The translations under genes were made by a program, and so were the position numbers. Positions 11,241-49,841 of a DNA stretch of 64,000 bases are shown in pieces; positions within the stretch are counted from its first letter, which is position 1, and every line of letters starts with the position of its first letter. The DNA comes from Bacteroidetes bacterium 2013_40CM_41_45 (GTDB taxonomy: Bacteria; Bacteroidota; Bacteroidia; AKYH767-A; 2013-40CM-41-45). The notes under the pieces are model-generated. The model had not been told where the DNA came from, searched no databases, and saw only the letters and a program-made list of their open reading frames with translations. The DNA lies in assembly GCA_002215675.1 (NCBI GenBank), contig NGFH01000002.1, positions 76,975-140,974 of the forward strand. The letters run 5' to 3'.

Positions 11241-11318
11241 GAGGTTCCGATCTGGGAGAAGGAGAATATTGATTCTTCTTCTCCCATTTTTTACATTTAC
11301 CGAATAATTCTTATTGCT

Positions 11319-33338: not shown

Positions 33339-33864
33339 TTTACACTTGAAGTAAAATTTAGTCGAGACAGGTAATAAAAAATATTTACAGAATCATTCTC
33401 GCCAAATAACATTTCATCCATCTTGCCGGTAAATGGTTTAGAACATTCTCCTACAATAATACAAAATTTCTGAGCACTAACCCTTCAACATCCTCACATT
33501 AAAATAAATTATCAGGTTTTATTATACAGGATAACACCTTGCATTGCAAGTATGTTTTACGTCTTGGTGAATACTGCCGTCCGCACTTACTTTTCCCCAC
33601 CCTTGACTTGCAATTAAATTCAATGTATGGTATACTATACCAGTAGGATTATCAATTAAATATTACCCATTGTCCCGAGAGGATCGGGCCGAAAAGGCTT
33701 GATGCAAGCAATGGCTTTTGAAGATTGCATATTCCACTCTGAAGTGTAGTATGTAGTTGTTGTACGCCTTACTGCGGACAACGCCCCCGACGGGGGAAGG
33801 AAGGTACCTTCGGGTATTATTCGCCAAAAGCCCACTTGACTTGCATCAGTGGGCTATTTGGTTT

Positions 33865-34794
33865 ATGAAATTAAGTGAAGCAATAGAAAAATTTTCAAAG
33901 TGGCGAACATTTAAGGTTAAGAAATGTACTGTCAAAGGGTACGAGCTTATCCTGAAACAATTCTGCGTATTTGTCCGCAACTGTGATATTGAAAGAGTAC
34001 GACTGGAAGATGTTACATCTTGGTTCAGTCTTTTGAACGATCTTCAGTGGCAGCACAATTCATTCATCACAAAGGCGCAGGCGCTCAGAAAGTTTTTCGA
34101 ATTCTACAAGATGCAGGGTTATTTGGTCCTTGAACCGAACCTTATTCCTCTTCCATCGAAGGAGTACAACATTCCCCGTGTTGCTTCAGAAGAAAATTAT
34201 CGCAAATTATTATCAGCATTTCCTGTTAAAACGAACGACCCAAGGCACATAAGAAATAGGGCAATCGTAATGCTTTTATGGGATACCGGAGCGCGAAACA
34301 GTGAAATTCTTGCGCTTGATGTAAATGATATGGATACAGAGAAAATGCATGCAGTTATAAAGACAGAAAAATCCAAAGGCCGCAGGCCATTCCGGGAAAT
34401 TTTTTGGACTGAAGAAACTAACAAAGCTTTGCTTGCCTGGATTACTAAAAGAGAATTTTTAAAGAAAACAAAAATGCAGCATATGGATGAATGTTTGTTT
34501 CCCTCTATCTGTTCTTCAGCAGGACTAAATTTAAGCGGAAGAAGATTAACCAATAAAGGTGTCGCGGAGTTTTTAAGACGATATTCGAACCGTGCCGGTA
34601 TTCCTTATATAAATGCACACAGTTTCCGCCATCACATGGGTCACGATATTATTTCCCAAGGAGGAAGCGCAGCAGATGTGATGAATATACTTGGTCACGC
34701 TACGCTTGCCAGTTCTTCGATTTATACAATGATGACTGGAAAAGAATTGGAGAATCGCTACAACATATTTAAAAACAGAAAATCGTCTGTGTAA
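33865..34794 (+). CDS. Tyrosine site-specific recombinase/integrase (the ORF-track start at 33757 is probably leader sequence; preferred start MKLSEAIEKF)
   Basis: LWDTGARNSEILAL (Arg box), HSFRHHMGHDI (H-x-x-R) and LGHATLASSSIYT (catalytic Tyr region). Confidence 0.8.
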   Translation: MKLSEAIEKFSKWRTFKVKKCTVKGYELILKQFCVFVRNCDIERVRLEDVTSWFSLLNDLQWQHNSFITKAQALRKFFEFYKMQGYLVLEPNLIPLPSKEYNIPRVASEENYRKLLSAFPVKTNDPRHIRNRAIVMLLWDTGARNSEILALDVNDMDTEKMHAVIKTEKSKGRRPFREIFWTEETNKALLAWITKREFLKKTKMQHMDECLFPSICSSAGLNLSGRRLTNKGVAEFLRRYSNRAGIPYINAHSFRHHMGHDIISQGGSAADVMNILGHATLASSSIYTMMTGKELENRYNIFKNRKSSV

Positions 34795-34954
34795 AGTTGC
34801 TTTCTAATAACCGCTTGCTATACTTTGAGGGCTATTTGCAAACTCAATACTTCATCTGTCATAATTAACAGATGATTTTAAAAAAGGTTTTGTGCGGCTC
34901 ACCCATGAAATATAAGCGCTGTCATGGGAAGTAGGGAATAGATGATGCCACATA

Positions 34955-34982
34955 AAACCTTTGTAACCAAAGGTTTTTTTGT
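34955..34982. terminator. Intrinsic terminator (aaaacctttg-taac-caaaggtttt + T-run)
   Basis: Perfect 10-bp stem with flanking A and T runs. Confidence 0.55.
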
Positions 34983-35174
34983 TTGTGCATAGCGGCCTGT
35001 GGACTTCATAGAATGGTTGGCATTATCCCGAATTACAAGCGGGATCGTTCCGAAGCTAATTCGGGATTGATGCGAGAGGTGCCATTGTAAAAGCTCTGGC
35101 TTCAGCCAGGTTATCCACAGACCGCTCCGCATAAAGGAGCAGGTCGAATTAATATTTAATACAAAATTTTACTT

Positions 35175-35375
35175 ATGTTAATTTATGACATCTGCGTGCG
35201 AAGGAATTACGAGAAGGAGGGGGAAAAAAAAGTCATTTGGTATAAAGTCGGGTTTTTAAAGGTGGCAGAAACCGGTAAGAAATATATCCGCCTCTTTCAG
35301 CAGCCCAATACGGACTTTTTTGTTTTTGAAAATAAGGAGAAACAGGAAGAAACTACAGAGGAAAAACAGTCATGA
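35175..35375 (+). CDS. Hypothetical small protein (66 aa)
   Basis: ORF whose stop overlaps the start of the next gene (ATGA). Confidence 0.35.
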   Translation: MLIYDICVRRNYEKEGEKKVIWYKVGFLKVAETGKKYIRLFQQPNTDFFVFENKEKQEETTEEKQS

Positions 35376-35710
35376 GCATAGGGACTACATCTGTCCCCAA
35401 TGCTCTTTTTGATTTGCACCTTAGGAGTTTAAAACTGGCGGAAATAAAAGTCCTGTTGGTGATATATCAAATGTTAAATGTAGGCGATAAGACTGCCCTA
35501 CAATGTAATTGGCTTTCAGGTAAGCAAATGCAAGCTAAAACAGGAAGTTCAAGACGAGCTATTTCTTCCGCCATTGAAATGCTTGTCCAAAAAGGACTTA
35601 TTGAAGTAATCGACAGACAGGGAAATATTCTAAGAGAACCGGTGAGAAGAAAAGGCAAGACAAAATTACTCTTCCGGCTCTCTCCCTTTCTGTCACAGAA
35701 GGGAGAATGA
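35372..35710 (+). CDS. Hypothetical DNA-binding (winged-helix-like) protein
   Basis: LSGKQMQAKTGSSRRAISSAIEMLVQKGLIEV resembles a helix-turn-helix. Confidence 0.4.
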   Translation: MSIGTTSVPNALFDLHLRSLKLAEIKVLLVIYQMLNVGDKTALQCNWLSGKQMQAKTGSSRRAISSAIEMLVQKGLIEVIDRQGNILREPVRRKGKTKLLFRLSPFLSQKGE

Positions 35711-35805
35711 AAGAATACATTATCAATTCTAATTAAAATAAACATGCAAGATTCAAAACATGAAATCTCAGTTGAAGAAATTAGAAGCTGTTGGAATGAA
35801 AGAAA

Positions 35806-36801
35806 ATGATTCTCCGAAAACACTTGAACAAAGTGATTTGTGGAGATGCACTTGAAACGTTAAAAAAATTTCCATCGGCTTCCATTGACTGTGCCATATT
35901 CTCGCCACCGTATTGGCAAATGCGCGATTACCGGTGGAAAGGACAATGGGGGCAGGAGAAGTCATTTGAAGAGTACCTAGAACGATTATGGCGCTTTATG
36001 GACGAATTAAAACGGGTTTTAAAGGCACGGGGTACGGTCTGGGTTAATATAGGTGACACCTATGGCAAACTGCCCGCTAAAACTCTGCTCCTGCTTCCGC
36101 ACCGCTTCGCTGTCGGTTGTCAGGAGCGTGGGTGGCTAATCCGCAACGATATTGTTTGGGCAAAACCGAACGGCATGCCGGAGAGCGTCAAAGACCGCTT
36201 CTCCAAAAAGCATGAGTATATCTTCTTCCTAACCAAAAGCAAAAAATACTACTTCGATTTGGACAGCGTAAGAGAGCAGCACAAAACTGCTTCCTTTGAA
36301 CGGTTGCAGCGAGGAGTTTCCGAAAATAAGGGTGGAGGCGGTCAATCTGTACACAGTATTTCGCAGCCGCGTCCGCATCTCACTAAGATTATAAAGTTAG
36401 ATGCGGAACATTATGGCTCACCGCGGGCAAGATACCATCGTGGTGATGGCACCGTGCGCTCCTTACATCCTAAAGGCAAGAACCCGGGTGATGTCTCAGA
36501 CTTTTGGAGTATCTCCACGAAGCCGAACTTCCAAAAGCATTTTGCTTCCTATAACTACGAGCTCATCAATAAACCCATTCTTGCCGGCTGTCCTAAGGAT
36601 GGAATCGTTCTCGATCCGTTCTGCGGCATAGCTACAACTGGAGTCAGAGCAATTGAACTCGGCAGAAAATTCATCGGCATTGAAGGCAAGAAGTCGTATT
36701 GCAAAATGGCGATGAAAAATATTGCGGCGGCAGAAAATTATCAGTTAAACAAACATAACTATGAACGAAAACACATTTCCATTTACAAAAGAACAGCTTG
36801 A
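35806..36801 (+). CDS. DNA amino-methyltransferase (N6-adenine or N4-cytosine), beta-class
   Basis: SPPY motif (IFSPPYWQM) near the N-terminus and FxGxG motif I near the C-terminus (DPFCGIATTG). Confidence 0.7.
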   Translation: MILRKHLNKVICGDALETLKKFPSASIDCAIFSPPYWQMRDYRWKGQWGQEKSFEEYLERLWRFMDELKRVLKARGTVWVNIGDTYGKLPAKTLLLLPHRFAVGCQERGWLIRNDIVWAKPNGMPESVKDRFSKKHEYIFFLTKSKKYYFDLDSVREQHKTASFERLQRGVSENKGGGGQSVHSISQPRPHLTKIIKLDAEHYGSPRARYHRGDGTVRSLHPKGKNPGDVSDFWSISTKPNFQKHFASYNYELINKPILAGCPKDGIVLDPFCGIATTGVRAIELGRKFIGIEGKKSYCKMAMKNIAAAENYQLNKHNYERKHISIYKRTA

Positions 36802-37045
36802 ACGATTCAGAAACGAAATAGATGAAGCTGGGAGTTTTGAGAAATTAATGATTAAGAAAAGAGCCCTAGTTCGAAGGGACGGACAGAAATGTATCGCTTA
36901 CTACTACGATATGGAAAGATACAAAAGAATACACTTAAACGGAGTTTATGAATCGCTCCATCCCATGTACGAAACCGTCATGCCTTACGTTTTCTGGAGC
37001 GATATGTACGAGATATTACAACAGAGCGAAGCTAAAAAAATATGA
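36761..37045 (+). CDS. Hypothetical protein (94 aa) overlapping both flanking methyltransferase genes
   Basis: ORF whose stop overlaps the start of the Dam-like gene (ATGA). Confidence 0.35.
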   Translation: MNENTFPFTKEQLERFRNEIDEAGSFEKLMIKKRALVRRDGQKCIAYYYDMERYKRIHLNGVYESLHPMYETVMPYVFWSDMYEILQQSEAKKI

Positions 37046-37833
37046 GGACACCACTAACCTATTTCGGTGGTAAACAAAAACTTGCAAAGCATATTCTTCC
37101 TTTAATTCCAAAACATAACCTATACTGTGAACCTTTTTTCGGAGGCGGTGCAATTTTCTTTGCCAAACAGCCGTCAGAAATTGAGGTTGTCAATGATATC
37201 AACGGAGATCTGATTAATTTCTACTTTGTAATGAAAAATGATTTTAAGAAGTTACAGAAAGAAATTAAGGTAACGCTTCACAGCAGAGAATATCATCATA
37301 TAGCAAAAATAGTTTTGGGTTATCCACAGTTATTCAATAACGTAAAGCGTGCTTGGGCTATATGGGTACTTGCTAATGAAAGCTATTCTTCCCGGCTTGA
37401 TTCAGATTGGGGATATGATAGGAAAAAAAATACATCTGCAAAGCGCTTGCAACACAAAAGAGAAGATTTCTCCGATGATTATGCGAAGCGTCTTGAACAA
37501 ACCGAGATTGAAAACACGGATGCGCTTAAAGTCATTGAAACAAGGGATAGCAAACAGAGTTTTTTCTACTGTGACCCGCCTTATTTCAATGCAAGCCGGG
37601 GGCATTACATTAAATACTCAGAACAAGATTTTGAAAACCTGCTGAAGTTGCTCGCAACGATTAAAGGAAAATTTCTTTTGAGTTCCTATCCCTCCGAATT
37701 GCTCAACAAATATTCAAAGAAGAACCACTGGCATACGAGGGAAATCGATATGTCGCTTGATATTACTGCGAAGTTCAATACCGGGAAGAGGAAAAAGGAG
37801 ACCCTGACGTCTAATTACAACCTTAATCTTTGA
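37042..37833 (+). CDS. Dam-family DNA adenine methyltransferase (alpha-class)
   Basis: YFGGK, EPFFGGGA (motif I) and DPPY (FFYCDPPYFNASRGHY). Confidence 0.8.
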   Translation: MRTPLTYFGGKQKLAKHILPLIPKHNLYCEPFFGGGAIFFAKQPSEIEVVNDINGDLINFYFVMKNDFKKLQKEIKVTLHSREYHHIAKIVLGYPQLFNNVKRAWAIWVLANESYSSRLDSDWGYDRKKNTSAKRLQHKREDFSDDYAKRLEQTEIENTDALKVIETRDSKQSFFYCDPPYFNASRGHYIKYSEQDFENLLKLLATIKGKFLLSSYPSELLNKYSKKNHWHTREIDMSLDITAKFNTGKRKKETLTSNYNLNL

Positions 37834-37885
37834 TAAGTTTGTGAAAAACTGATAAAGTTCTATTTTTGTAGAAAATAAAATAACT

Positions 37886-38227
37886 ATGTCATTATCGATT
37901 ACAGACCTTGATGAGTTCCATCAATATTTTAATGGAGTTATGAGCCGAACTGCTCATCACGCACCGAATGTGGATGAAATTATTTTTACAATTGTCGGAG
38001 GTGTTCTTTGGAAAGCAACTCACAATATAAAAGTCAGAGAACAAGACGGAGAAACAAAAAATATACTTTGGTTCAATGTCGGTGATAAACGTTATACATT
38101 AAGGTATGAACATGGCAATGGTGGAAGTATAGAACTTCTGTCAGGTACGTTACAAGGATCATTTGTGGCGCGTTTTGATAATCAAACAACTCTATCGGCT
38201 GTCCGGCAAGTATTTTCCACCCTTTAA
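37886..38227 (+). CDS. Hypothetical protein, 113 aa
   Basis: ORF only. Confidence 0.4.
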   Translation: MSLSITDLDEFHQYFNGVMSRTAHHAPNVDEIIFTIVGGVLWKATHNIKVREQDGETKNILWFNVGDKRYTLRYEHGNGGSIELLSGTLQGSFVARFDNQTTLSAVRQVFSTL

Positions 38228-38246
38228 ATCTTAATACACTATATCA

Positions 38247-38591
38247 ATGGAATCAATAATAGCGCATAATAGGACAGCAGTTGTACTAAATGCAAACCAA
38301 GAACAACATATTTCGTTTGGTACTAATATCGATGCAACAGAAGCAAGAGTGTATTTGCGATATCCTCCACTTAAAAACGACAGTAGACTGGAAATTTTCT
38401 TTTCTGATACTGATGGTAGAAAGGCAGGAAACGGGCATGTGATTCTATCGAATAGTGGAACTTCAGAATTCACATTAGAATTCTCAGATGAACAATATGT
38501 AGGTATGAAATCATATATTTTTAATGGAATAGCGTTCAAATGCCCTCATAACTTCACTTTTGAATTCTGGATTGAAAGGCAACCATTATAA
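38247..38591 (+). CDS. Hypothetical protein, 114 aa
   Basis: ORF only. Confidence 0.4.
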   Translation: MESIIAHNRTAVVLNANQEQHISFGTNIDATEARVYLRYPPLKNDSRLEIFFSDTDGRKAGNGHVILSNSGTSEFTLEFSDEQYVGMKSYIFNGIAFKCPHNFTFEFWIERQPL

Positions 38592-38685
38592 ATCTATAAC
38601 ATTCGAGTTGATTCACTAGGCGCGATGCATTTTTTGTAGAATCGATACGAAATGTTAGGTTTGTGTTCACGAGATTAGCTCTATA

Positions 38686-41079
38686 GTGAACTTTAAAGGT
38701 CTTTTTGAAAAGCTTTATTTCGCTTCCTCTGAAGAAGCGGTTGATGAAATTATTAATCAACATCCTGATATTTTTAAAAATGAAAATTGGAGTCCGTTTG
38801 GAGGAGACGAAAAACTTTTTGGAATTGTCAGAGGTCAGCAATCCAGTCCTATCGCTGCATTGGTTGAGAAAGTGACAAATTCCATTGACGCAATTTTAAT
38901 GAGGAAGTGTTTTGAATCAGGAATTAATCCGTCCTCAACGAATGCTCCACGTACTATGGGTGAGGCAATCAATAAATTTTTCCCTGACCATAAGAACTGG
39001 GATCTGTCAAAGTTTAGAGCGAAGCAGTCAGAGGAAATTCAGGTTGTTGCTGATGGTCCACCCCGTAACACTTCAGTAATTATCTATGACAATGGCGAAG
39101 GACAACACCCACAGGAATTTGAAAACACATTTTTGTCTTTGGTGCGCGGGAATAAAATCAACATCCATTTTGTGCAGGGGAAATATAACATGGGCGGCAG
39201 CGGTGCTTTAGTTTTCTGTGGAAGGAAGCGATTTCAACTCATTGGCTCAAAGCGGTTTGACCATTCAGGGAAATTTGGTTTTACATTATGCAGACAACGA
39301 AAGATAGGTGATGCGACTGATGCAAAACGTTTCAGCTATTTTGAATATCTAAAAATTGAAGGAGAGATTCCTTTGTTTGAATCCGGTGAAATGGATTTGA
39401 AGCTCTTAAATAGAAAATTTAAAACGGGCACAATAATTAAATTGTATTCATATCAATTTCCTTCGGGATATTCTGGGTTTGCTCAGGACTTAAATCAAAG
39501 CTTAAATGAATTTCTTTTTGAACCCGTACTGCCTGTTTACACAGTTGATAACAAAGAACGATATCCAAACAACAAAGTTCTTGAGCTTGATTTATATGGA
39601 TTGAAAAGAAGATTAGAAGAGGATAAAAACGATTATGTTGAAAGATTTTTTTCGGAAGAATACGTTGATGAGCTTTTTGGAATAACAAAAGTCACATGTT
39701 ATGTTTTCAAACCTAAACTTGAGAAGCGAAATGTAAAAGAATCAAAAAAGATTATTGGGGACCGGTTCTTTCGGAATGATATGTCAGTTATGTTTTCCGT
39801 AAATGGACAAGTTCAGGGCAGTTATACTTCTGAATTCATTACGCGTACATTGAAATTTAATTTGCTGAAGGATTATTTACTTATTCATTGCGACTGTACG
39901 AATATGAAACCTGACTTCAGGGAAGAAATATTTATGTCCGATAGGGAAAGGTTGTCCAAAGGGGAGGACGCTCTTGCTCTTCGGGATTACTTAGGAAAGA
40001 AGCTGCGAAAGAGTCAATTGGATGAAATCAATCGACACAGAAAAGAATCCATCGGATTAGAAAGTGAAGATACTTCTGAACTGATAAAGTCATTTGCGAA
40101 AAATCTTCCGAAAGACAGTGAGTTGTTCAAACTTCTACAAAACACATTGAAGCTGGAAGAGAAAAAAGAAACCAAGAAATCTGAGGACGGACAAAGGCCA
40201 AAAAATGTAAAGGAAGAAAAACCGTTTAATCCAAGTCGTTTCCCATCGCTGTTTAAGTTGAATGGAAGTAAAGGCGGTATAACCGTGATCAATCTGCCAG
40301 TTAACGGAGAGAAAACAATAAGGTTTGATACTGACGTTGAAGATGATTATTTCGACAGGGTTGATGAACCAGGTGAACTGCAGATAGCTCTTTTGAAGAT
40401 AAAAAGAAATATTGTTGGAGGTGGAGATAAACCTGGAAGTAAAAAAGAAATTTCCGAATATCTGAATATTGTAAAAAGCAGCCCTAGTAGAGGTACTATA
40501 AGACTTACTCTCAATCCCACCCATGAGTTGAAAATAGATGACGAAGTTGAAATAAAAGTTTCACTTACTGCTCCAGGAGAAGCAAAGGACGAAATGCTTC
40601 TTGTAAAAATTGTTCAACCTGAAGCGCCGAAAGAAAAAGCACCTAAACAGGAGGAAGAATTAGAAAGTATAGGTTTACCTGAACTCAAACGTGTTACATC
40701 TCAGCAATGGGAACAAATGGAACAACACGGTATTTCAATGAACAGAGATACAGTAATGTTTCCTGTTGGCGAGGGAGATAAACTTGAAAAAGTTTACATC
40801 AACTTAGACAGTCGTGTTTTTTTGAATCATCGCTCTAAGCTGAAATCAGAAGATCAAATTACAGTTGCGCAAAAACGTTACCTCTCCTCTGTATATTTTC
40901 ATACTCTATTTCTTTACATAATTACAAAAAGAAAAAAATATTCTCTTACTATCCCAAAAGGGGATAAGCAGGAAGAAGTTACCGTTGATGAATATATCCG
41001 CGATGTATTTGATAGTTACTACTCCGACTTTTTATTGAACTTCGGGATGGAGCAATTGATGGGAGTGTTAGAAGAATAA
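38686..41079 (+). CDS. GHKL (Bergerat-fold) ATPase-domain protein, 797 aa, with a long charged Lys/Glu-rich linker
   Basis: N box EKVTNSIDA and G1 box YDNGEGQ near the N-terminus. GTG start. The last 51 nt of the gene are repeated at 41889..41939. Confidence 0.55.
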   Translation: MNFKGLFEKLYFASSEEAVDEIINQHPDIFKNENWSPFGGDEKLFGIVRGQQSSPIAALVEKVTNSIDAILMRKCFESGINPSSTNAPRTMGEAINKFFPDHKNWDLSKFRAKQSEEIQVVADGPPRNTSVIIYDNGEGQHPQEFENTFLSLVRGNKINIHFVQGKYNMGGSGALVFCGRKRFQLIGSKRFDHSGKFGFTLCRQRKIGDATDAKRFSYFEYLKIEGEIPLFESGEMDLKLLNRKFKTGTIIKLYSYQFPSGYSGFAQDLNQSLNEFLFEPVLPVYTVDNKERYPNNKVLELDLYGLKRRLEEDKNDYVERFFSEEYVDELFGITKVTCYVFKPKLEKRNVKESKKIIGDRFFRNDMSVMFSVNGQVQGSYTSEFITRTLKFNLLKDYLLIHCDCTNMKPDFREEIFMSDRERLSKGEDALALRDYLGKKLRKSQLDEINRHRKESIGLESEDTSELIKSFAKNLPKDSELFKLLQNTLKLEEKKETKKSEDGQRPKNVKEEKPFNPSRFPSLFKLNGSKGGITVINLPVNGEKTIRFDTDVEDDYFDRVDEPGELQIALLKIKRNIVGGGDKPGSKKEISEYLNIVKSSPSRGTIRLTLNPTHELKIDDEVEIKVSLTAPGEAKDEMLLVKIVQPEAPKEKAPKQEEELESIGLPELKRVTSQQWEQMEQHGISMNRDTVMFPVGEGDKLEKVYINLDSRVFLNHRSKLKSEDQITVAQKRYLSSVYFHTLFLYIITKRKKYSLTIPKGDKQEEVTVDEYIRDVFDSYYSDFLLNFGMEQLMGVLEE
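41029..41079 (+). repeat. 51-bp direct repeat, copy 1 (3' end of the GHKL gene)
   Basis: tttttattgaacttcgggatggagcaattgatgggagtgttagaagaataa; 46/51 identical to 41889..41939. Confidence 0.6.
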
Positions 41080-41098
41080 AAAGTAAAAAGCTAAAAAA

Positions 41099-41869
41099 AT
41101 GAAAATCTTAGATTTATTAAAAAAGCTTTCATTATTTATTTCTATAACGTTCTTAGGAGTACTTATTTCTAACTTATTTCCTGGTCAATATAACAAACTT
41201 ATTGTTATAATAATTTGCATTGCATTTATTTCATATGCGGCTACTTATTTCATACATAGGAGTATAAGCAAAAATATAACTAATAAGTCCTTAGATATTA
41301 CTGGTTTTTTTCTCACCGAAAGAGGAAGGAAATTTATTGCAACAATGGAAGTAATGGGTATTCATGATGTATTTAGTAAGCTAAGAGGAAGCGAGGCGGA
41401 TCCTCGTAATATCGTAAAAAGTGTAAAAAAATCCTTATATTTTATGGGAGGTACAGCATCCAAATGGAGAGATATGGAGGCTCTAAATGGAATTGCAAAG
41501 TTGCAAGCTGATAATGTTGAAATTAAATTTCTTTTATTCAATCCCGAATCAAAAAATAAGCAAGAATTCTTTAAGTTAAGACAACTTGAAGCGAGCAATA
41601 CATATTTTATGGAATTTATGAATAGAAATAAAAATGTTGAAATAAGAGTATTCGATTTTTTGCCACATATTCGTTTAAACATAATTGATAACAAAGTCAT
41701 GTATGTTTATAGTTATTATGATCATAATGCAAACTATAGTTTTGGGGAAGAAACTCCAGTTATTAAGCTCTTAAATGATTCTGAGATTCAAAAACCTTTG
41801 TACGAGGCGTTTCAAAAATATTTTGAAAATGTTTGGTCTGAGTCTAAGCAAATAATTCCAAAAGTTTGA
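41099..41869 (+). CDS. Membrane protein (two N-terminal TM helices + ~190-aa cytoplasmic or periplasmic domain), hypothetical
   Basis: LFISITFLGVLISNLF and LIVIIICIAFISYAATYFI hydrophobic helices. Confidence 0.5.
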   Translation: MKILDLLKKLSLFISITFLGVLISNLFPGQYNKLIVIIICIAFISYAATYFIHRSISKNITNKSLDITGFFLTERGRKFIATMEVMGIHDVFSKLRGSEADPRNIVKSVKKSLYFMGGTASKWRDMEALNGIAKLQADNVEIKFLLFNPESKNKQEFFKLRQLEASNTYFMEFMNRNKNVEIRVFDFLPHIRLNIIDNKVMYVYSYYDHNANYSFGEETPVIKLLNDSEIQKPLYEAFQKYFENVWSESKQIIPKV

Positions 41870-41940: not shown

Positions 41941-42978
41941 TTAAGCAGCTTTTACAAATAGTTTATCTGCTTCAATCTTTAAAAGCCGTATAATATCATT
42001 AATTTCAGTGTATCTCCTTTTCTTAGAATGATTAAGCATTGTTCTGACAATTTGGTAAATTCTCGAATGCTTAATCATAAAATCCTTTTCCTTTATTACT
42101 CCAATTGGAGCATTATATTGAAATATGTACCAAAACACTTTTCCCAATTGAAATATATCAGACTGATGGTCAATAAAACAATTATGATCGAATTCAAAAT
42201 TCTTTCCTTCGCATAAAAATTTATTCATTGACTCAGGAGACAGCCATCCGGCGGGACCTATACGCTCTGCAATGTTATCTATCATATCTAAACTATTCCG
42301 TTCTGCGATTAGGCCTAAATCACCTATTTTCCAAAGTGAATCAATCATAAAAATATTATCGGGCTTAATGTCTCTATGATAATAACCTAATGAAAATAAT
42401 TCCTTTAATCCTTCACAAAGACTTATAGATAATTCAATCTTTTCATATAATTCTAAACGGTTGTGATTAAGCTCAATGTATTTTTTCAAATCATTGTTGG
42501 CATATTCCATTGTGTAAAACAAATATTCATCATAGGATGTATTAGGAACGTTTCTTATTTTGCAAGTTCCATCATGAAAGATTTTTATAACGTTCTGAAA
42601 GTTTTCTGCATTACATTTTTTTAGAGCGTCTATTTCCTTTTTGAACCGCTTCTCTTTTTTTGACGGAAATCTTAAATTAGAAGAGTTTTTTGAGTTCGAT
42701 ATTTTCAAAACAATATCGGGATCTCCATATTCAATATTTCCTGTATTGACTTCATCGAATGTCTGACTTTCATAAAGATTTAGGATAATAGAATTACCAC
42801 CCTTATTACCTGGACTTGCCCCATTAAGGTATGTAAAGTAATATCCTATTCCATCAATTGTAATAAAATTATCTTTTGGATTTTCTATAGTAATAGGCTG
42901 GCCATATTGACTGGTTCCAACTCGATTGTAAATCGTGCTATTTATAATTAATTTATTATCTGGAAAATTAAATTCCAT
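41941..42978 (-). CDS. Eukaryotic-like protein kinase fold protein (345 aa)
   Basis: Catalytic loop YYHRDIKPDNIFM, DLG (DFG-equivalent) in KIGDLGL, SPE (APE-equivalent) in GWLSPES, Gly-rich GNKGGNS, and VLKI (beta3 Lys). Four-nucleotide gap to the upstream DUF262 gene. Confidence 0.6.
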   Translation of the reverse strand: MEFNFPDNKLIINSTIYNRVGTSQYGQPITIENPKDNFITIDGIGYYFTYLNGASPGNKGGNSIILNLYESQTFDEVNTGNIEYGDPDIVLKISNSKNSSNLRFPSKKEKRFKKEIDALKKCNAENFQNVIKIFHDGTCKIRNVPNTSYDEYLFYTMEYANNDLKKYIELNHNRLELYEKIELSISLCEGLKELFSLGYYHRDIKPDNIFMIDSLWKIGDLGLIAERNSLDMIDNIAERIGPAGWLSPESMNKFLCEGKNFEFDHNCFIDHQSDIFQLGKVFWYIFQYNAPIGVIKEKDFMIKHSRIYQIVRTMLNHSKKRRYTEINDIIRLLKIEADKLFVKAA

Positions 42979-42982
42979 GATT

Positions 42983-44101
42983 TCATTTATTTAAGCTTTC
43001 AACATCAAGCAATTCAAAATTTCCAATTTTCTTCAGACTTACTTTTCTATTTCCAAACAATGACGATAAATAATTTAATACGTCAGCCAAAGTCTCATTA
43101 ATATTAATAGATTCATTTTTAAGTATCGCATTAAAAAAATTCAATCTTTTTTCTCTGGCACTTTTTGAATTGGATTGAGTGATACAATTATTTGCATATT
43201 CCTTAAGAGCTAGGCACTCTTCGTTAGATGGACGTATCATTTGCCTCCCATCTTTATCTTTACCATCGATAACAAGCAATATTTTGTATTGATACTTTAA
43301 GACCTCATTTTCTAAATCAATATTCTCACTAAGGAATGAGAATAATGTGTAAAAATCATTCTTCTGTTTATATCGTGTTCCAACCAGTGGAGTGATATTA
43401 TTTAGCAATTCTATTTTATCTATTATTCTTTTAAAAGTTTTGTCAAGGTAATTGTACTCATCTTGATTAATGTCTGATTTAAAAACACCCTCTACAGACT
43501 TCCTTTTGTCTTTAACTCCTGAAATTAAATATGCTAAAAGTTCCTCAATGAACGCTCTATCATTCATTCGTTTTGAAGTTGCTTCGGAGAAGAGATTCAA
43601 ATTGATTAAATTCTGATACGAAAGCAAATCATTCGCTAATTTCATAAACATAGAATCGTGAAATTCAGATTTATTTACTTCCGCTATATTAAGGTGAACC
43701 CCTTTTTTATTAATGAGGACATAAAATTCTTTTAAAAAAGCAGGATTTGAAACCTCGCGGATTAAAATTACGGGAATTCTATAATCAAGAAATCTTTCTT
43801 GATCTACACTAGAAAATTGAATTTTACTAAATGCTTTTGAAGATGTAATTTGTCCTTTAACAAATCGATAAATTGTTTTTGTCCGCTGTTGCCCGTCCAC
43901 AATTTCATAAGTTCCTCCTGGTTTTTCATAAAAGAAAAAACTTGGAAGTGGATATGCTTTCAAAATTGTATCAATTAGCTCCATTTGATTATCTGGAGAC
44001 CAAATAAAGTTCCTTTGATACGAGGGATTTAAATCAATAAGATTATTATCAATTAAATGAATGACTTCTCTTATTGAAAATTCTTTAAGAATAAATTCCA
44101 T
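42983..44101 (-). CDS. DUF262 (ParB/GmrSD-N-like) domain protein with DGQQR motif; SspE-N-terminal-like or DndB-like
   Basis: PSYQRNFIWS ... GTYEIVDGQQRTKTIYRF. No recognisable nuclease motif in the C-terminal 170 aa. Confidence 0.65.
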   Translation of the reverse strand: MEFILKEFSIREVIHLIDNNLIDLNPSYQRNFIWSPDNQMELIDTILKAYPLPSFFFYEKPGGTYEIVDGQQRTKTIYRFVKGQITSSKAFSKIQFSSVDQERFLDYRIPVILIREVSNPAFLKEFYVLINKKGVHLNIAEVNKSEFHDSMFMKLANDLLSYQNLINLNLFSEATSKRMNDRAFIEELLAYLISGVKDKRKSVEGVFKSDINQDEYNYLDKTFKRIIDKIELLNNITPLVGTRYKQKNDFYTLFSFLSENIDLENEVLKYQYKILLVIDGKDKDGRQMIRPSNEECLALKEYANNCITQSNSKSAREKRLNFFNAILKNESININETLADVLNYLSSLFGNRKVSLKKIGNFELLDVESLNK

Positions 44102-44104
44102 TTT

Positions 44105-45211
44105 TCAAACAAAACAAGCCGTACATCCTTCGTCGTCTAATTTTGGTAAGATGTCAAGCAACTTGTTGGATTTTGGCTTTTCGTTTTTTGTACGTTTAAG
44201 ATATTCTGATTTGATTTGCTCCATCCTGTTGGGTTGAATCAAATCGGTCAGACTTTCGTGCTGGTTCCATGTAAAACCCGCTTTTTCGTTTTCATATTTC
44301 ACTGCCGAATTAAAAAGGTCAGGATGTTGTTCGTAAAGCCAAATCCATTCTATGCGCTGCTGAAAAAAGCAAAAGTAGCAACCGGAACGACTCCGTGCAT
44401 ACATTCCATTTTCGCTCTCGGTTTTAAAAGGAAGTTTGGTGTAGTAGTTTGGCATCCCAACAGTTTCACGAAGTAGCTCTACAACATCTTCCATTTTATA
44501 AATATCTTCATTATCCAGTAAAGGAAAATTATGAACATTAGCTAAAGGATAAGATGTGCTTTTCAAAAACTCGAATGTTATGTGATTAAATGTAACGGTA
44601 TCTAAATTCAAAAGTGCTTTTAATTTTTGCTCTTTAGTGAATTCAACAGTGATAGGTTCTTCAATTACAGAAATGAAACGCGGTAAGCGTTCTTCACTTA
44701 CACGTTGCTGGTATTGTTTAGAAAGAAATGGAATATTGGTATTCGCCAACACTTTTGCAATTATATCTACGCTCCATATATTTTGACGGAAAGGAAAAAT
44801 AGATTGAATGTTTGGCTTGGTGGAGATGTATCCTTCGCGGTTTTCATCACCCCGAATACCGACATACGAAATCACAGGAGTATCACCGACAAATTTTTCA
44901 AACGGTTCAATTTTTAATTTCTTCGTACACCAGCGAGCTGTTGGGCTTGGCAGGTATCCACCGAAAAGATTAAAGTAGTGATCAAATGGGTCTTTGTTGG
45001 AATCTTTGGCAGCTTCGAGATATGTAACCTTTTTTCCAAGGAAGCTTTCAAGATTCTTTATCAGGGTATAAGTGTCCTCTAATTCTTTTCCCGTATCGCA
45101 AAAATAATATTCAATATCCAGTTGAGGATAATTACGCTTCATATAAACCGCTAAAGCAGCGCTGTCCTTGCCTCCCGATATGCCGAGTACGTGCCTTATG
45201 CTATTGTTCAT
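44105..45211 (-). CDS. PAPS-reductase-like PP-loop ATP pyrophosphatase (SspD/DndC-like)
   Basis: PP-loop LGISGGKDSAALAVYM. C-terminal Cys motifs CYFCFF / GCTACF. Confidence 0.7.
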   Translation of the reverse strand: MNNSIRHVLGISGGKDSAALAVYMKRNYPQLDIEYYFCDTGKELEDTYTLIKNLESFLGKKVTYLEAAKDSNKDPFDHYFNLFGGYLPSPTARWCTKKLKIEPFEKFVGDTPVISYVGIRGDENREGYISTKPNIQSIFPFRQNIWSVDIIAKVLANTNIPFLSKQYQQRVSEERLPRFISVIEEPITVEFTKEQKLKALLNLDTVTFNHITFEFLKSTSYPLANVHNFPLLDNEDIYKMEDVVELLRETVGMPNYYTKLPFKTESENGMYARSRSGCYFCFFQQRIEWIWLYEQHPDLFNSAVKYENEKAGFTWNQHESLTDLIQPNRMEQIKSEYLKRTKNEKPKSNKLLDILPKLDDEGCTACFV

Positions 45212-48200
45212 TCGATAATTCTTCCTGTAAAAGTTTTACAAGGATACTGAGATTTGTTTTAGTGTCCTTTCGCAATATCGTCTTTATTTTTTGCACTGCA
45301 ACATCCACGTCCTTTTGCTGTGATTTTGGAATACGCAGAATCCTTTTACTTAATCCTTTTACAAAAGAAGATACTTGAAACATTAAAACTTCTTCATTTG
45401 CTTCATCCACATCCGACTTACTAAGTTCGCTTAAAGAATCCAATTCCAAAATAAATTCGCTGAACTGGGTGTGTAGTTTGCTTTCTTCTTCATCGGTTAT
45501 TGAATCCAAGGATTTTCCTATACAAGCCTGTGCAATAGAGGCAAGATAAGAATCGCGGTCATCCAATTCGGAAGTTAGACGGTTATAAAATGCTTTTTGT
45601 GCGGGAAGCAGCAAATACGTTTTTAAGCCGGAGAATCGCTTCTTAATAGAATTTTTGTAAGAAGGGAAATTTCCCTCAACGCCTAAAACATTTTTAACTG
45701 TTTCTTCAAAGAGAGTTAGTAGCTGGTTATAACTGCCTTGAATTTCACGAATGTAAGTTTGCAATTCTTGGACAAATTTCTCAGCAAGTTTTTCATCTTT
45801 TTTTAACTGAGGTAATGTATAGCCCAGTGCTGCCGGAAAATCTTCAAAGAAAATTTTTTCAGGATCAATTGCATTTGCGATTGCATCACGCAATGCGATT
45901 GCTTTTTTAGAAATGCGCTTTGTGGTTTTCGAATAGCTGCTGAGGTTTCTGTACAGGACTAAAAAGGGTCTAATCGTTTCAATAAAACTTTTATTTGATA
46001 CCCTAATGTCCTTGCTTTGATTGATAAGGGTGCGATACCGCCTGAATAATTTTATCCGAATGCTGTCCAAATCAAATGCCTTGATGCTGAAGTTTGCCGG
46101 CTTGCGAACGAGCAGATCTAAAACATCAGATTTAATTTCTGGAATATATTTTCCCTCATCATCATAAAGTGCATATTCATCCTGTTGTGAGATAAGAAAA
46201 ACGCATAGCCAAAAATCAAGAAATCCTTTTTTGAGTTTGATAGGTTTGCGAGAAAGAATATCTACTAACTCCTGTAAATTGCGTTTATCTGTTTTCGCAC
46301 TCGAAATAAAATCAACGCATATTTTCCACAGTGGCAGGAAAGAACTTTCAGCAGGTCGGCTTAATTGCCAGAATCCTTCACTGTTGTTATGTATGCCGGG
46401 TTCCTTTAAAAGAGAAAGGTAAATAGTTTTCTGAGGTGGAAAATGAGTTTCATCAAACCCAATATTTTCTATGTCACAACGCGATAAAAGCGCAAGAACC
46501 AAATCCCTTCTTGCAGCTGAAATCTGAGGGGAAATACTTGTTTTATTCACCATCTCATTTTTGAAATGAGGTGTTCTATTGTAAACGGTATTACAGATTT
46601 CGGAAAGTTTCTGATTCAGTTGCGTGCTGTTTTTGATATGTAGTTTTTCATCCCTAAAATACCATTCAACAATTTCAGGATTGTAGAAACTATCCATCAC
46701 AGCATGATTAAGTAAATTGCGGTTGTGTTGCAAAATACCTTTAAGTTCGCGGACAGCTACTTTATCATCCGGATTTAGTTCAATTACTTTGTTTACTTTT
46801 TGAATTTCAAAAAGTAGCTTCTGAATTTCTTTTGTGTTCTTAAAGCAACCAAATAAAATTGCTTCATCAGAGTTTGCAGAAGCACGCCTTATTTCTGCTG
46901 CCCTAGGGTTGAGGGAGAAGACAAGATTAATGTAACCATCAATTTCATCTTCTGGAACTAAGCTAATTGGATTTTCACTGATTTGAAATTGAAAAAAACG
47001 GGGAGTACCTGTTTTAAAAAATTCTTTCTTGGTAAGTATAAAAGGGAACTCAAAATTTTGTTGCAAGTGATGAACTACGTTTGTTACACGTTCTATCAAA
47101 TTACCTGCTTGATCAATTGCTAAATCAATATCAATATCAGTTCCTTCAAACAGAATGTACTTAAATGCATAATTAACGTACCGAATGATTTTATACTTTT
47201 CTAAGGTTTCAATGATATGTTCCGCATTACGAATACCCAAAGAATATTTTGCATAGTCAATCAAAAATGATTTTGTAAGTTTAGCTGACGCAGTGGCAAA
47301 AATGTTAAGTAAACCAATACTCTTAATTAATTTAACTGCGTCATTTTGTTGCTTACTTTTAAATGCTTCTATTCCTTCAACTTGTGCAATAGATTTTTTT
47401 AAAAGATTCCATTCTACAAAGTGGGGGTTATTTTTACTGTTGATGAACGAATAATAATTATGAGCGAAATACTCGTATATACAAGCAAGGTTGTAATAAG
47501 GGTGCTCATCTGAATTATAATCGTTTATGCCGTAGAAGTCATTTGATTCTAAAAATGAAAATAAGCTGCGTTCGTTTTGCCCATAACGTTGTAATGCCAA
47601 AGTGAGCACCGCTGCTGAAAGAATATCAAACGGAAGGAGTTTCTGAGCAATATCTTCATTGAAATAATCACGAAGTGGGAATGCTTTCGCATCTCGGATA
47701 ACTTCAAACAACTTTTGAAAATCTTTGGCGTCATTTCCTTTTGTACTTCTAAGCATCCTCTCAGAAGCTAAATATAGAAGTTGTTCTACGGGTTCATTAA
47801 ACGTAATATCTTTTAATCTTCCTTTGACTTTATTCCATTCATTACGCTGTGCTTTTGTCAAATCAAAAGCATAAGTGCCAAAATCCTGGTGAAGAGTTGT
47901 AATTAAAAGCAAATTATTTTTTTCATCATTTGCCAATTCTGCTAGCTGTTGAATAAAATAAAGTTCCTCTTCGGGATCATTTTTTGCAGCGCATTCTAAA
48001 AATTTTCCAAACTCATCTACTGCAATTATTGTTTTATAATTTTTCTTTTTATTCGATTTACAACGAAATGAAATTTCCTGAAGCAAATCGGAAATTTTGA
48101 ATAGAGAATTATGGCGGACTTTAAAACGCTCTGAAAAAGATTGTGTGATAGAAACGTAACTACCTATCACTTCAATAAACTCCATTTTTCCATATGAGTC

Positions 48201-48449
48201 TGTAAATTTTTTTGCTTCAGGAAAGTGATTATGTCTTCCATTCAGTGTCTGATAAAGAGCGAGTAAGAAAGATGATTTACCTGTGCCATATGCACCGATA
48301 ATATTAAACGCGCGATTTCCAGCATCAAAATCTAAAAGAAGTTGTTTATAAACCTGCTTGGCGTTAGGTGTTGAAATGTAATTCAACGGTGAATCTAAGT
48401 CACGCTGAATATTTGCCGAGGGAGAAAATTTTGGTTTAATAGCAATCAT
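45201..48449 (-). CDS. Large P-loop NTPase (1082 aa), SspC/BrxC-like
   Basis: Walker A GAYGTGKSS and Walker B TIIAVDEFGK. Overlaps both neighbouring genes. Confidence 0.6.
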   Translation of the reverse strand: MIAIKPKFSPSANIQRDLDSPLNYISTPNAKQVYKQLLLDFDAGNRAFNIIGAYGTGKSSFLLALYQTLNGRHNHFPEAKKFTDSYGKMEFIEVIGSYVSITQSFSERFKVRHNSLFKISDLLQEISFRCKSNKKKNYKTIIAVDEFGKFLECAAKNDPEEELYFIQQLAELANDEKNNLLLITTLHQDFGTYAFDLTKAQRNEWNKVKGRLKDITFNEPVEQLLYLASERMLRSTKGNDAKDFQKLFEVIRDAKAFPLRDYFNEDIAQKLLPFDILSAAVLTLALQRYGQNERSLFSFLESNDFYGINDYNSDEHPYYNLACIYEYFAHNYYSFINSKNNPHFVEWNLLKKSIAQVEGIEAFKSKQQNDAVKLIKSIGLLNIFATASAKLTKSFLIDYAKYSLGIRNAEHIIETLEKYKIIRYVNYAFKYILFEGTDIDIDLAIDQAGNLIERVTNVVHHLQQNFEFPFILTKKEFFKTGTPRFFQFQISENPISLVPEDEIDGYINLVFSLNPRAAEIRRASANSDEAILFGCFKNTKEIQKLLFEIQKVNKVIELNPDDKVAVRELKGILQHNRNLLNHAVMDSFYNPEIVEWYFRDEKLHIKNSTQLNQKLSEICNTVYNRTPHFKNEMVNKTSISPQISAARRDLVLALLSRCDIENIGFDETHFPPQKTIYLSLLKEPGIHNNSEGFWQLSRPAESSFLPLWKICVDFISSAKTDKRNLQELVDILSRKPIKLKKGFLDFWLCVFLISQQDEYALYDDEGKYIPEIKSDVLDLLVRKPANFSIKAFDLDSIRIKLFRRYRTLINQSKDIRVSNKSFIETIRPFLVLYRNLSSYSKTTKRISKKAIALRDAIANAIDPEKIFFEDFPAALGYTLPQLKKDEKLAEKFVQELQTYIREIQGSYNQLLTLFEETVKNVLGVEGNFPSYKNSIKKRFSGLKTYLLLPAQKAFYNRLTSELDDRDSYLASIAQACIGKSLDSITDEEESKLHTQFSEFILELDSLSELSKSDVDEANEEVLMFQVSSFVKGLSKRILRIPKSQQKDVDVAVQKIKTILRKDTKTNLSILVKLLQEELSNEQ

Positions 48450-49320
48450 TCAACACCTCCATTTTATCAAGTGTTTTTTTAAATTGTAATTCCTGAACTC
48501 CGGCATTTTCTGAAAAAGTTACGCCCTGACTTTTATAATCTTTTTTTATTTGTTCCAATTTCGCAAACAGGCCTTCTCTGCTGAGAGCGAATATCGAACC
48601 AGGCATATTTTTTCCAATATGCAGGTCTTTAAATGAAATTGATTTACTGTTGGGACGCGCATCTAAAATGGTAAAGAGCAATAAACCTGTTGGCAAGTCA
48701 TACCGAAGACCACTCTCAATTTTAAAGTAATCTACCCTTTTATTTTCATAGTCACGACCTTCTATTTGCTCCATCAATTGCAAATCCACCAACACACTTG
48801 AAAAATCTTCTTCGATTCCTTCACGTGTATCTTTAGAAGACGGTTTTATGTAAGTGCGAATAAAAACTGCAATGTCGTTATTAATTGTGGTTGTGCTCAA
48901 TTTAATTTCGTCTTCTTGTAGTCGCTTAGTTACAAAAGCGAGTAAATGTTCACGGCTGAATTCCATTCGTTGCCGTCTAAATTCATTAAAGAAAATATTG
49001 TACAATGAAGAATGATTATTGCTTACTAGTAAGTAGTGCAACAACCAAACAGTTGCAATGTTCTCGATATATGGGTCTTCACCCTTTTTGTCGTCAAAGA
49101 TGAATCGTCCGATACCAGTCAACTGATTTTTAGTATCTATCACGCTAAAGCCTTTCATCCAATAATGGACGGCACTCACCATATTCTTACCAACCCCCAA
49201 TTTTATAACAGCTTTTTCCTCACGGAAAGAGTTACCTTCATTCACAAAGTCATAGCCCTTCTTGAGCCAAAAATGCTTACAGATAAATGAATCGTGACCA
49301 GAGAATAACAATTTATTCAT
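48436..49320 (-). CDS. First gene of the operon (294 aa); position and size fit a DUF4007/SspB-like protein
   Basis: Assignment rests on synteny and size only. Overlaps the ATPase gene by 14 nt. Confidence 0.4.
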   Translation of the reverse strand: MNKLLFSGHDSFICKHFWLKKGYDFVNEGNSFREEKAVIKLGVGKNMVSAVHYWMKGFSVIDTKNQLTGIGRFIFDDKKGEDPYIENIATVWLLHYLLVSNNHSSLYNIFFNEFRRQRMEFSREHLLAFVTKRLQEDEIKLSTTTINNDIAVFIRTYIKPSSKDTREGIEEDFSSVLVDLQLMEQIEGRDYENKRVDYFKIESGLRYDLPTGLLLFTILDARPNSKSISFKDLHIGKNMPGSIFALSREGLFAKLEQIKKDYKSQGVTFSENAGVQELQFKKTLDKMEVLNDCY

Positions 49321-49338: not shown

Positions 49339-49375
49339 TCAAAAAAATAAAGCCACCTGCGTTAAACAGGTGGCT
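49339..49375 (-). terminator. Intrinsic terminator for the upstream 148-aa gene (agccacctg-cgttaaa-caggtggct + T-run on the minus strand)
   Basis: 9-bp perfect stem, then ttatttttttgat reading on the minus strand. Confidence 0.55.
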
Positions 49376-49394: not shown

Positions 49395-49841
49395 TCAGGG
49401 CTTCACTAACCTCTTTAACAAAGCTATCACTTCCTGCAAATGCTTCACGCTTTCAATCACGATTGTACAACTTGGACCATTCCAGAACTTCTGAACACTT
49501 GCTGTAAGCGTCTTAATTTCATGATGTTTGATTAACTTCCGGGTGTCCTTCTCGGGATGCTTTACTACAAGGTTAATCCTCTTCCGAGAAAAATGGAAGA
49601 AAGCTATGCTCCGGTCTTTCTTAACAGAAATGTAATATTTCTGAGGATTAAACTTAAGTTGCTTGTTGACCTTCAGAAGCTCTTTCTTCACCCTGGTGTA
49701 TATCTGTTTCACATCTTCCGTTGCATCCTTAAGATGATACTCCTCGGTAAACGCTTCCGGCTTAACCTTCGTATGATTACTTTCTACTTTGGCAATCATC
49801 GGCTTAACTTTTTTGGATTGTTTTTTCTTTTTTGTTTTCAT
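49395..49841 (-). CDS. Lys-rich hypothetical protein (148 aa)
   Basis: ORF with its own terminator. Confidence 0.45.
   Translation of the reverse strand: MKTKKKKQSKKVKPMIAKVESNHTKVKPEAFTEEYHLKDATEDVKQIYTRVKKELLKVNKQLKFNPQKYYISVKKDRSIAFFHFSRKRINLVVKHPEKDTRKLIKHHEIKTLTASVQKFWNGPSCTIVIESVKHLQEVIALLKRLVKP

Follow-up and report, generated by a model that had tools for sequence, protein, structure and literature searches.

The 64,000-nt stretch of the Bacteroidetes bacterium 2013_40CM_41_45 genome that was analysed here (GCA_002215675.1, contig NGFH01000002.1, positions 76,975-140,974; hereafter, the window) contains a gene for a Hanks-type (eukaryotic protein kinase, ePK) protein kinase, which is preceded by a gene for a DUF262 protein and by homologues of the DNA phosphorothioate (PT) modification genes sspB, sspC and sspD. 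We find that the kinase and the DUF262 protein form a conserved pair linked to Ssp genes, and we consider it somewhat probable that this pair is a dedicated accessory of SspBCD, in which PT would be read by the DUF262 protein and the output of the kinase would block infection. The genes of the locus, in the order of their transcription, are as follows:

48436..49320, minus strand: SspB (DUF4007; Pfam DUF4007, 6.6e-72; PADLOC SspB, 1.4e-98)
45201..48449, minus strand: SspC, a 1082-residue ATPase (PADLOC SspC, E = 0, 1309 bits, full length)
44105..45211, minus strand: SspD, an ATP pyrophosphatase of the PAPS-reductase type (PADLOC SspD, 4e-92; Pfam PAPS_reduct)
42983..44101, minus strand: DUF262 partner, 372 residues, ParB/Srx-fold NTPase domain followed by a helical C-terminal domain
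42979..42982, minus strand: 4-nt spacer AATC between the stop codon (TGA) of the DUF262 gene and the ATG of the kinase gene
41941..42978, minus strand: Hanks-type (ePK) protein kinase, 345 residues (Pfam, AlphaFold2, Foldseek and a 118-sequence alignment)

The genes overlap by 14 nt (SspB/SspC) and 11 nt (SspC/SspD) and are then separated by 3 nt (SspD/DUF262) and 4 nt (DUF262/kinase), so a single five-gene operon SspB-SspC-SspD-DUF262-kinase fits the arrangement. Judging by the family matches listed above, this operon is an SspBCD PT modification module. The original prediction had placed the kinase in a defence operon; this context is borne out, but the identity of the operon as SspBCD had been missed. 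A scan for promoters was uninformative, with 33 sites against 35 expected.

The kinase gene is the single open reading frame (ORF) in 41941-42978. It starts with the ATG at 42978 and reads on the minus strand, which the original prediction had left unstated although the ORF itself is real; the plus-strand translation of the same interval is interrupted by many stops. Direct reading of TGA-AATC-ATG places the start of the kinase 4 nt downstream of the DUF262 gene, as had been proposed, and a spacer of this length suggests translational coupling. In related loci, the two genes are at most 1 nt apart and overlap by up to 14 nt. No transmembrane segment or signal peptide was found in the kinase, in agreement with the earlier claim, the maximum Kyte-Doolittle mean over any 19 residues being 0.82.

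The 345-residue protein is a genuine member of the Hanks-type protein kinase superfamily. It matches the Pfam families Pkinase (E = 1.2e-18, 67.9 bits against a cut-off of 31.7) and PK_Tyr_Ser-Thr (E = 1.9e-15); NCBIfam has no model for either the kinase or its DUF262 partner. A search of 5.8 billion proteins returned 839 relatives, the best 120 of which share 51-67% identity with it and are of nearly constant length. All the motifs that had been quoted for this protein (GNKGGNS, VLKI, HRDIKPDN, DLG and SPE) are found in its translation, at the following positions:

42790..42810, minus strand: GNKGGNS, residues 57-63, an atypical glycine-rich loop between beta1 and beta2 of the model
42703..42705, minus strand: Lys92, the beta3 'VAIK' lysine, within VLKI (residue 90 on), invariant together with the helix-C Glu115
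42355..42378, minus strand: catalytic loop HRDIKPDN, residues 201-208, invariant positions, codons read directly
42313..42321, minus strand: Mg-binding DLG, residues 220-222, a DFG variant, invariant in 118 sequences, codons read
42232..42240, minus strand: SPE, residues 247-249, the end of the activation segment, following a conserved GPxGW, codons read

Conservation of individual residues was judged on an alignment of 118 sequences. Invariant in this alignment are K92 (the beta3 lysine), E115 (helix C), H201-R202-D203, K205, P206, D207, N208 and D220-L221-G222, as well as G241, P242, G244, W245, P248, E249, D274 and R322. The last group includes features specific to protein kinases, namely the APE-like S/T-P248-E249, the F-helix Asp D274 and R322 of subdomain XI, all of which are present and invariant. 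The glycine-rich loop is in the right position but is atypical in sequence when compared to the canonical GxGxxG: G60 is invariant and K59, G61, N62 and S63 are found in at least 90% of the sequences. The catalytic motifs are thus conserved among homologues, as an active enzyme of this fold had been expected to show.

An AlphaFold2 model built from the homologue alignment was confident (predicted local distance difference test, pLDDT, 93.2; predicted template-modelling score, pTM, 0.90) and had a kinase fold. Foldseek matched it to more than 2000 kinase chains in the PDB, with target-normalised template-modelling scores of ~0.7 and 15-20% identity; the top matches were FGFR2, JAK1/2, AAK1, PknB and TTK. 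The kinase profile found generic kinase matches alone among PDB sequences (best 1.7e-14), so this protein has no close kinase relative with a solved structure. In the N-terminal lobe, the model has beta1 at 44-50, the glycine-rich loop at 51-62, beta2 at 63-70, beta3 at 89-97 and helix C at 107-124, and the helices of the C-terminal lobe match the protein-kinase-specific helices F to I. With a confident fold and invariant catalytic residues, the view of this protein as an active-looking ePK-fold enzyme holds up, and the kinase is probably catalytically competent.

One earlier statement on its architecture has to be corrected. The protein had been thought to carry an N-terminal extension of ~120 residues that included GNKGGNS and VLKI, an over-estimate that arises because the Pfam alignment begins only at residue 102. 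GNKGGNS makes up the glycine-rich loop, and the beta3 lysine lies within VLKI; both thus belong to the kinase domain, which begins close to residue 45 and spans ~45-345. By the secondary structure of the model, the true additions are a beta-rich N-terminal extension of ~45 residues, with conserved F3, F5, P6, G14, P34 and N37, and an insert of ~20 residues between beta2 and beta3.

Catalytic loops of the HRDIKPDN type belong to Ser/Thr kinases, and the GPxGW that precedes SPE resembles the P-x-x-W of tyrosine kinases. Because a Ser/Thr-type catalytic loop is combined here with a Tyr-like G241-P-x-G-W245, hydroxyl specificity is unreadable from the sequence. In the homologue alignment, the activation loop has no conserved Ser, Thr or Tyr besides the S/T of SPE. 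The lack of a conserved phospho-acceptor in this loop hints that kinase activity may be controlled by a partner rather than by loop phosphorylation.

The DUF262 partner is recognized by Pfam as GmrSD_N (1.1e-20), with no other domain. No DUF1524/HNH nuclease was found in it by Pfam, and the model is helical after residue 120. Its best PADLOC match is NsnA (1.2e-29, residues 6-236), and PADLOC gave no match to SspE, DndB or Dazbog. The AlphaFold2 model (pLDDT 87.5) has an N-terminal ParB/Srx fold and a helical C-terminal half, and Foldseek relates it to the ParB and Noc CTPases and to BrxU (7p9k) and, weakly, to SspE (6jiv) and DndI (9jfl). Two motifs stand out in its N-terminal domain:

44012..44026, minus strand: motif I, P26-S-Y28-Q29-R30
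43883..43897, minus strand: motif II, D69-G-Q-Q-R73, the NTPase centre, invariant in 94 sequences

In motif I, P26, Y28, Q29 and R30 are invariant in the same 94 DUF262 sequences, as is W34. In Escherichia coli SspE, PT is sensed by a pocket made up of P61, Y63 and Q64, and the GTPase activity that PT stimulates requires the Arg of DGQQR (PMC13251355); by motif comparison alone, motif I corresponds to P61/Y63/Q64. The invariant aromatic-QR and DGQQR motifs are consistent with PT sensing by the DUF262 protein. Stand-alone ParB-DUF262 proteins with a helical DNA-binding domain have been proposed as the DNA sensors of Menshen, SspE and GmrSD (PMC12065111). The best reading of the DUF262 partner, by analogy, is that it is in effect SspE minus the HNH nuclease, that is, a split, SspE-like PT sensor.

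To survey the distribution of the pair, metagenome contigs were scanned with an alignment limited to the family-specific C-terminal part of the kinase, which yielded 80 loci. Of the 66 loci with at least 1.3 kb of upstream sequence, 65 have a DUF262 gene as the next gene upstream of the kinase, in the same orientation. When the loci were dereplicated at 90% kinase identity, 48 clusters remained, 37 of them on contigs long enough to show Ssp; in 36 of these 37 informative non-redundant loci, SspB/C/D genes were present. In L109, the single Ssp-less exception, the pair is immediately preceded by an IS1595 transposase gene. The five-gene order of the window is kept with kinases of 35-48% identity (Mucilaginibacter and two others), and Dyadobacter sandarakinus has SspB-SspC-SspD-DUF262-kinase with SspA on the opposite strand. 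Linkage to Ssp holds in three phyla and down to 26% kinase identity. A kinase profile search of the full library gave 114 cluster representatives at E <= 1e-30. The placement of the pair relative to SspBCD varies (after SspD, after Pbe, before SspB, divergent or convergent), and the pair was unsplit in all loci examined, with a Sphingopyxis plasmid as a possible exception. On that plasmid, SspFGH-like genes (identified from RefSeq annotation and gene sizes) and a DUF262 gene are followed by an insertion sequence (IS) element in the kinase position.

No pair was found in the IMG/VR viral contigs, and the plasmid collection gave no kinase match at E <= 1e-20; more distant pairs were reached via the DUF262 partner. 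On two Asticcacaulis plasmids (L170 and L173), DUF262 and a gene annotated as 'protein kinase' are convergent on a DndB-annotated gene, which is followed by SspA-B-C-D; the DndB label comes from RefSeq, and the gene has no PADLOC match. On a Pseudanabaena plasmid (L172, 158-11218), the pair directly follows SspF-SspG-SspH (PADLOC E down to 0) and precedes a cysteine desulfurase gene. The kinases of these plasmids have HRDIKPDN, GPRYWMSPE and SDVFQLA.VFW in common with the window kinase. They lack the N-terminal extension, and the DUF262 proteins encoded beside them end in an additional Cys-rich tail. A shifted gene boundary, by which the kinase extension would correspond to the longer C-terminus of these DUF262 proteins, was considered and rejected, as the tails are Cys-rich and zinc-ribbon-like and bear no resemblance by eye to the extension.

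Co-variation was assessed from pairwise-distance matrices across 23 distinct loci. The DUF262 and kinase matrices correlate at r = 0.906, and at a partial r of 0.75 when SspD is controlled for; kinase and SspD given DUF262 correlate at 0.24, and SspC and SspD at 0.937. The DUF262 protein and the kinase therefore behave as one module. Their pairing is well supported, and the earlier suggestion that the DUF262 protein is the partner of the kinase is strengthened by both the obligate pairing (65/66 loci) and the co-variation. The G+C content of the pair is below that of SspC/D in 33 of 33 loci, by a mean of 5.4 points; in the window, it is 0.29-0.30 for the DUF262 and kinase genes, 0.345-0.378 for sspBCD and 0.374 overall. 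The low G+C could be a matter of protein composition or of a separate evolutionary history.

What the kinase may do is suggested by a substitution on the Hymenobacter sp. plasmid L168 (NZ_CP110137.1, 12439-19545), where SspB-SspC-SspD and an NsnA-like DUF262 gene are followed by a gene for a 279-residue SIR2 protein (PADLOC ThsA, 1.6e-31). This gene lies exactly in the kinase position and is convergent on a gene for a GHKL-like protein. Because SIR2 fills the slot of the kinase and SspE fuses the same sensor architecture to HNH, the comparison suggests one DUF262 sensor with interchangeable outputs, namely HNH, SIR2 and kinase. We infer that the kinase is the effector, a view that is strengthened by the SIR2-for-kinase swap.

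The loci differ in what else accompanies the modification genes and the pair, a wider conserved system that had escaped notice in the original prediction. In the window, this position is occupied by a convergent gene, and a hairpin delimits the other end of the region:

38686..41079, plus strand: 797-residue protein with a weak N-terminal GHKL-ATPase signature (HATPase_c_3, 1.2e-4), convergent on the operon
49351..49375, minus strand: terminator-like hairpin with a 10-bp stem (6 G-C pairs) followed by a T-run, between the DUF5655 gene and the ssp operon

Homologues of the GHKL-like protein (51-74% identity, ~800 residues) are encoded convergently just after the kinase in 16 of the 48 clusters, and more distant ones (43-50% identity) adjoin SspABCD on Hymenobacter, Devosia and Ensifer plasmids. 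No relative was found among PDB sequences. The GHKL-like protein is a probable further component or alternative restriction arm, and a candidate for an undescribed PT-associated restriction or effector component. PbeABCD and SspFGH are both absent from the window, the GHKL-like protein being in the neighbouring position instead. In other genomes, a PbeABCD-like set is found in 22 of the 48 clusters, human-gut loci included. It comprises a SNF2/DEAD PbeA helicase (PADLOC E = 0), an SMC-like PbeC ABC ATPase and a dnd_assoc_4 protein of 160-190 residues, and it lies between SspD and DUF262 in some loci and follows the kinase in others (L111, 2979-8242; ~20 others, e.g. L148 and L167). In such loci, the set accompanies Ssp, not Dnd, modification genes. 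The PbeABCD-like and GHKL-like neighbours are mutually exclusive in the sample. Four loci (L001, L084, L125 and L135), each with 10 kb of sequence on either side, have neither, and in these the pair is the sole non-modification component within 10 kb. The DUF5655 gene (49395-49841) was rejected as a member of the system, since none of the related loci has it and the terminator-like hairpin lies between it and the operon.

Putting these data together, we propose that SspBCD, with a cysteine desulfurase encoded elsewhere, would mark host DNA with PT. The DUF262 protein would read the PT or nucleoside triphosphate (NTP) status through its NTPase cycle, like the DUF262 domain of SspE, and would switch on the kinase rather than license a fused nuclease. 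The kinase might then phosphorylate host and/or phage proteins, so that phage replication would be blocked or the infected cell arrested. We infer the contact between the DUF262 protein and the kinase, the sensing of PT, the activation of the kinase, its substrates and the antiphage outcome. That a PT signal passes through a stand-alone ParB-fold DUF262 NTPase to a Hanks kinase, turning the self/non-self status of DNA into protein phosphorylation, is a tentative proposal to which we give a little less than even weight.

Several observations weigh against this proposal. No homologue of SspA was found in the 64-kb window, although the function of SspA (cysteine desulfurase) may come in trans, as in other Ssp systems (PMC12914056). 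The DUF262 partner has no detectable sequence match to SspE. Its aromatic-QR and DGQQR motifs occur in DUF262 proteins generally and do not discriminate for PT sensing, and in the alphaproteobacterial and cyanobacterial partners F replaces the Y of the aromatic-QR motif. The SIR2-for-kinase swap is a single example, in which the DUF262 protein has an identity of only 30% across the N-terminal 124 residues. The pair is also rather well conserved for effectors (mean pairwise distance ~0.5, as compared to 0.41 for SspD and 0.59 for SspC), and its constancy beside three differing modules (PbeABCD-like, SspFGH and GHKL-like) fits a regulatory role too.

Such a role, in which the DUF262-kinase pair would regulate the PT system in the manner of DndB, with the ParB-fold protein monitoring PT or NTP status and the kinase phosphorylating SspB/C/D or the co-resident restriction module and thereby tuning modification versus restriction, appears unlikely to us, although several features speak for it. 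The pair is constant, whereas the modules presumed to act in restriction differ between loci (PbeABCD-like in 22/48 clusters, GHKL-like in 16/48, SspFGH in Pseudanabaena), it is part of the modification operon, where genes overlap or almost abut, its conservation is comparable to that of SspD, and DndB itself is a ParB-superfamily regulator of PT modification (PMC10853773). However, the replacement of the kinase by SIR2, a typical NAD-depleting effector, in one Ssp operon is hard to square with a phospho-regulator, neither protein of the pair matches the DndB hidden Markov model (HMM), and no cognate phosphatase is encoded nearby. The presence of further modules is no argument against an effector, as SspE and SspFGH co-occur and act additively (PMC8092258). 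The roles within the pair might also be reversed, with the DUF262 protein as the effector (a ParB/Srx-type NTPase or DNA nickase) and the kinase as a switch or safeguard that might, for instance, hold it inactive by phosphorylation before infection; nicking of DNA and hydrolysis of NTPs are both known from the ParB/Srx superfamily (cited in PMC12839542 and PMC10853773), the NTPase motifs are invariant and the two genes are tightly coupled. This arrangement is quite improbable when set against SspE, GmrSD and BrxU, in which cleavage is carried out by a separate DUF1524/HNH domain and DUF262 is the sensor, and against a partner slot that can hold SIR2, an autonomous effector.

Equally doubtful is the notion of an independent two-gene defence system that is lodged in ssp loci, as an embedded gene or a 'defence island', but is functionally independent of phosphorothioation. 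The G+C difference from SspC/D, seen in every one of the 33 loci, would fit it, as would co-variation within the pair that exceeds that with SspC/D, the shifting position of the pair relative to SspBCD and the one locus that has the pair without Ssp; yet linkage to Ssp in 36 of 37 informative loci from three phyla, with an IS-rearranged locus as the sole exception, and the lack of a stand-alone pair in the plasmid and viral collections point the other way. It is very improbable that the kinase is a pseudokinase or scaffold that binds nucleotide without phosphorylating protein, or else a small-molecule kinase. The atypical GNKGGNS loop, DLG in place of DFG and the activation loop without a conserved phospho-acceptor might be read in this sense, but K92, E115, D203, K205, N208 and D220 are all invariant, the APE-like motif, Asp274 and Arg322 are likewise invariant, and the C-lobe helices F to I of the model are protein-kinase-specific.

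One of the closest known systems is SspABCD-SspE (Xiong 2020; PMC13251355). The locus has the SspB/C/D genes in common with it, and in both a ParB-fold NTPase of the DUF262 family, with the invariant aromatic-QR and DGQQR motifs and a helical domain behind them, is encoded immediately downstream of sspD; presumably, they also share a PT/NTP-gated sensor that licenses an effector. In contrast to SspE, the DUF262 protein of the window lacks DUF1524/HNH, the effector position is taken by a separate kinase gene and SspA is missing from the window; nor does the protein have an SspE HMM match or a PDB sequence match, only a weak fold match to 6jiv. We therefore do not identify it as SspE. Menshen NsnA (PMC12065111) is the best HMM match of the DUF262 partner and is likewise a stand-alone, nuclease-free DUF262 protein with a helical C-terminal domain, on the basis of which its ParB-DUF262 + ParBDB architecture is tentatively equated with that of the partner. 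Unlike Menshen, the window has no adjacent NsnB ABC ATPase or NsnC effector; the partner is a kinase, and the genes are tied to a PT modification operon. Menshen (NsnABC) was accordingly rejected: NsnB and NsnC are missing, the kinase is the sole downstream operon gene and the next gene is convergent. DndB resembles the DUF262 partner in being a ParB-superfamily protein that is encoded with PT modification genes, but the latter has no DndB HMM match, for which reason that identity was rejected too, and has an obligate kinase partner. In the Asticcacaulis loci, the RefSeq-annotated DndB gene is separate from the DUF262-kinase pair. SspFGH and PbeABCD co-reside with the pair in many loci, and their proteins are unrelated to it.

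Eukaryotic-type kinase domains are found in other antiphage systems, including Stk2, PD-T4-6, MAD6 (MADS), PglW (BREX type 2/Pgl) and kinase-bearing DndF variants, and MAD6 and PglW are also located in modification-based systems. PADLOC cross-matches of the window kinase are to mad6 (1.9e-22), PD-T4-6 (1.5e-16) and Stk2 (9.5e-16). However, the similarity of these defence kinases to the window kinase is limited to the generic domain and none of them is coupled to DUF262 or Ssp; the window kinase differs from them in being small and single-domain, with its own N-terminal beta extension. Assignment to MAD6 fails on an NCBIfam score of 24.3 bits against a cut-off of 460. A stand-alone kinase of the Stk2/PD-T4-6 type was also rejected, given that DUF262 precedes the gene in 65/66 loci and the matches are limited to the generic kinase core.

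A pair of DUF262 protein and kinase in an Ssp context was not found described in the openly searchable literature (7.7 million PMC papers and bioRxiv), subscription-only papers being outside the scope of the search, and surveys of Dnd/Ssp genomics, BREX, Menshen/DUF262, gut PT, SspFGH and embedded defence do not contain such a pair. In a 2021 census, only ~15% of 2,678 sspBCD clusters had SspE or SspFGH (PMC8092258), so the remaining ~85% leave room for partners like the DUF262-kinase pair. The pair is widespread in Bacteroidota, human-gut strains included, and is also present in Alphaproteobacteria and Cyanobacteria. If our proposal is correct, the DUF262-kinase pair would explain a sizeable share of the partnerless sspBCD clusters in Bacteroidota, gut-metagenome loci included. 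It would also add a non-nuclease output, protein phosphorylation, to PT-based immunity, a new class of output for modification-based immunity, and would make the DUF262 sensor a portable front end that drives HNH, SIR2 or kinase effectors. The pair offers a small, tractable two-gene system for studying communication between a ParB-fold NTPase and the enzyme that accompanies it. A second uncharacterised Ssp-associated protein that emerges from this comparison is the 797-residue GHKL-like protein.

Some further genes near the kinase deserve mention. In a Mucilaginibacter-type locus (L165), a gene for a 181-residue RNA 2'-phosphotransferase (PTS_2-RNA/KptA; 10954-11499) overlaps the end of the kinase gene by 4 nt, and a gene for an NB-ARC/TPR protein comes next, ahead of the GHKL-like gene. 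In the window, the flank at 33757-41869 resembles a mobile defence island. It includes a tyrosine integrase (33757-34794), two type II DNA methyltransferases (N6_N4, 35806-36801; Dam-like, 37042-37833), a VCH_CASS14 integron-cassette protein (37886-38227) and a DUF5919 protein (41099-41869), whose gene separates the GHKL-like gene from that of the kinase. No cognate restriction enzyme for the two methyltransferases was identified in this flank. The window also contains two giant ORFs, at 2565-11240 (plus strand, 2891 residues) and 22067-32785 (minus strand, 3572 residues). The latter is called on the public contig as a 3568-residue product with CARDB/Ig-like repeats and a Por_Secre_tail signal of the type IX secretion system (T9SS), from which the host can be placed in the Bacteroidota.

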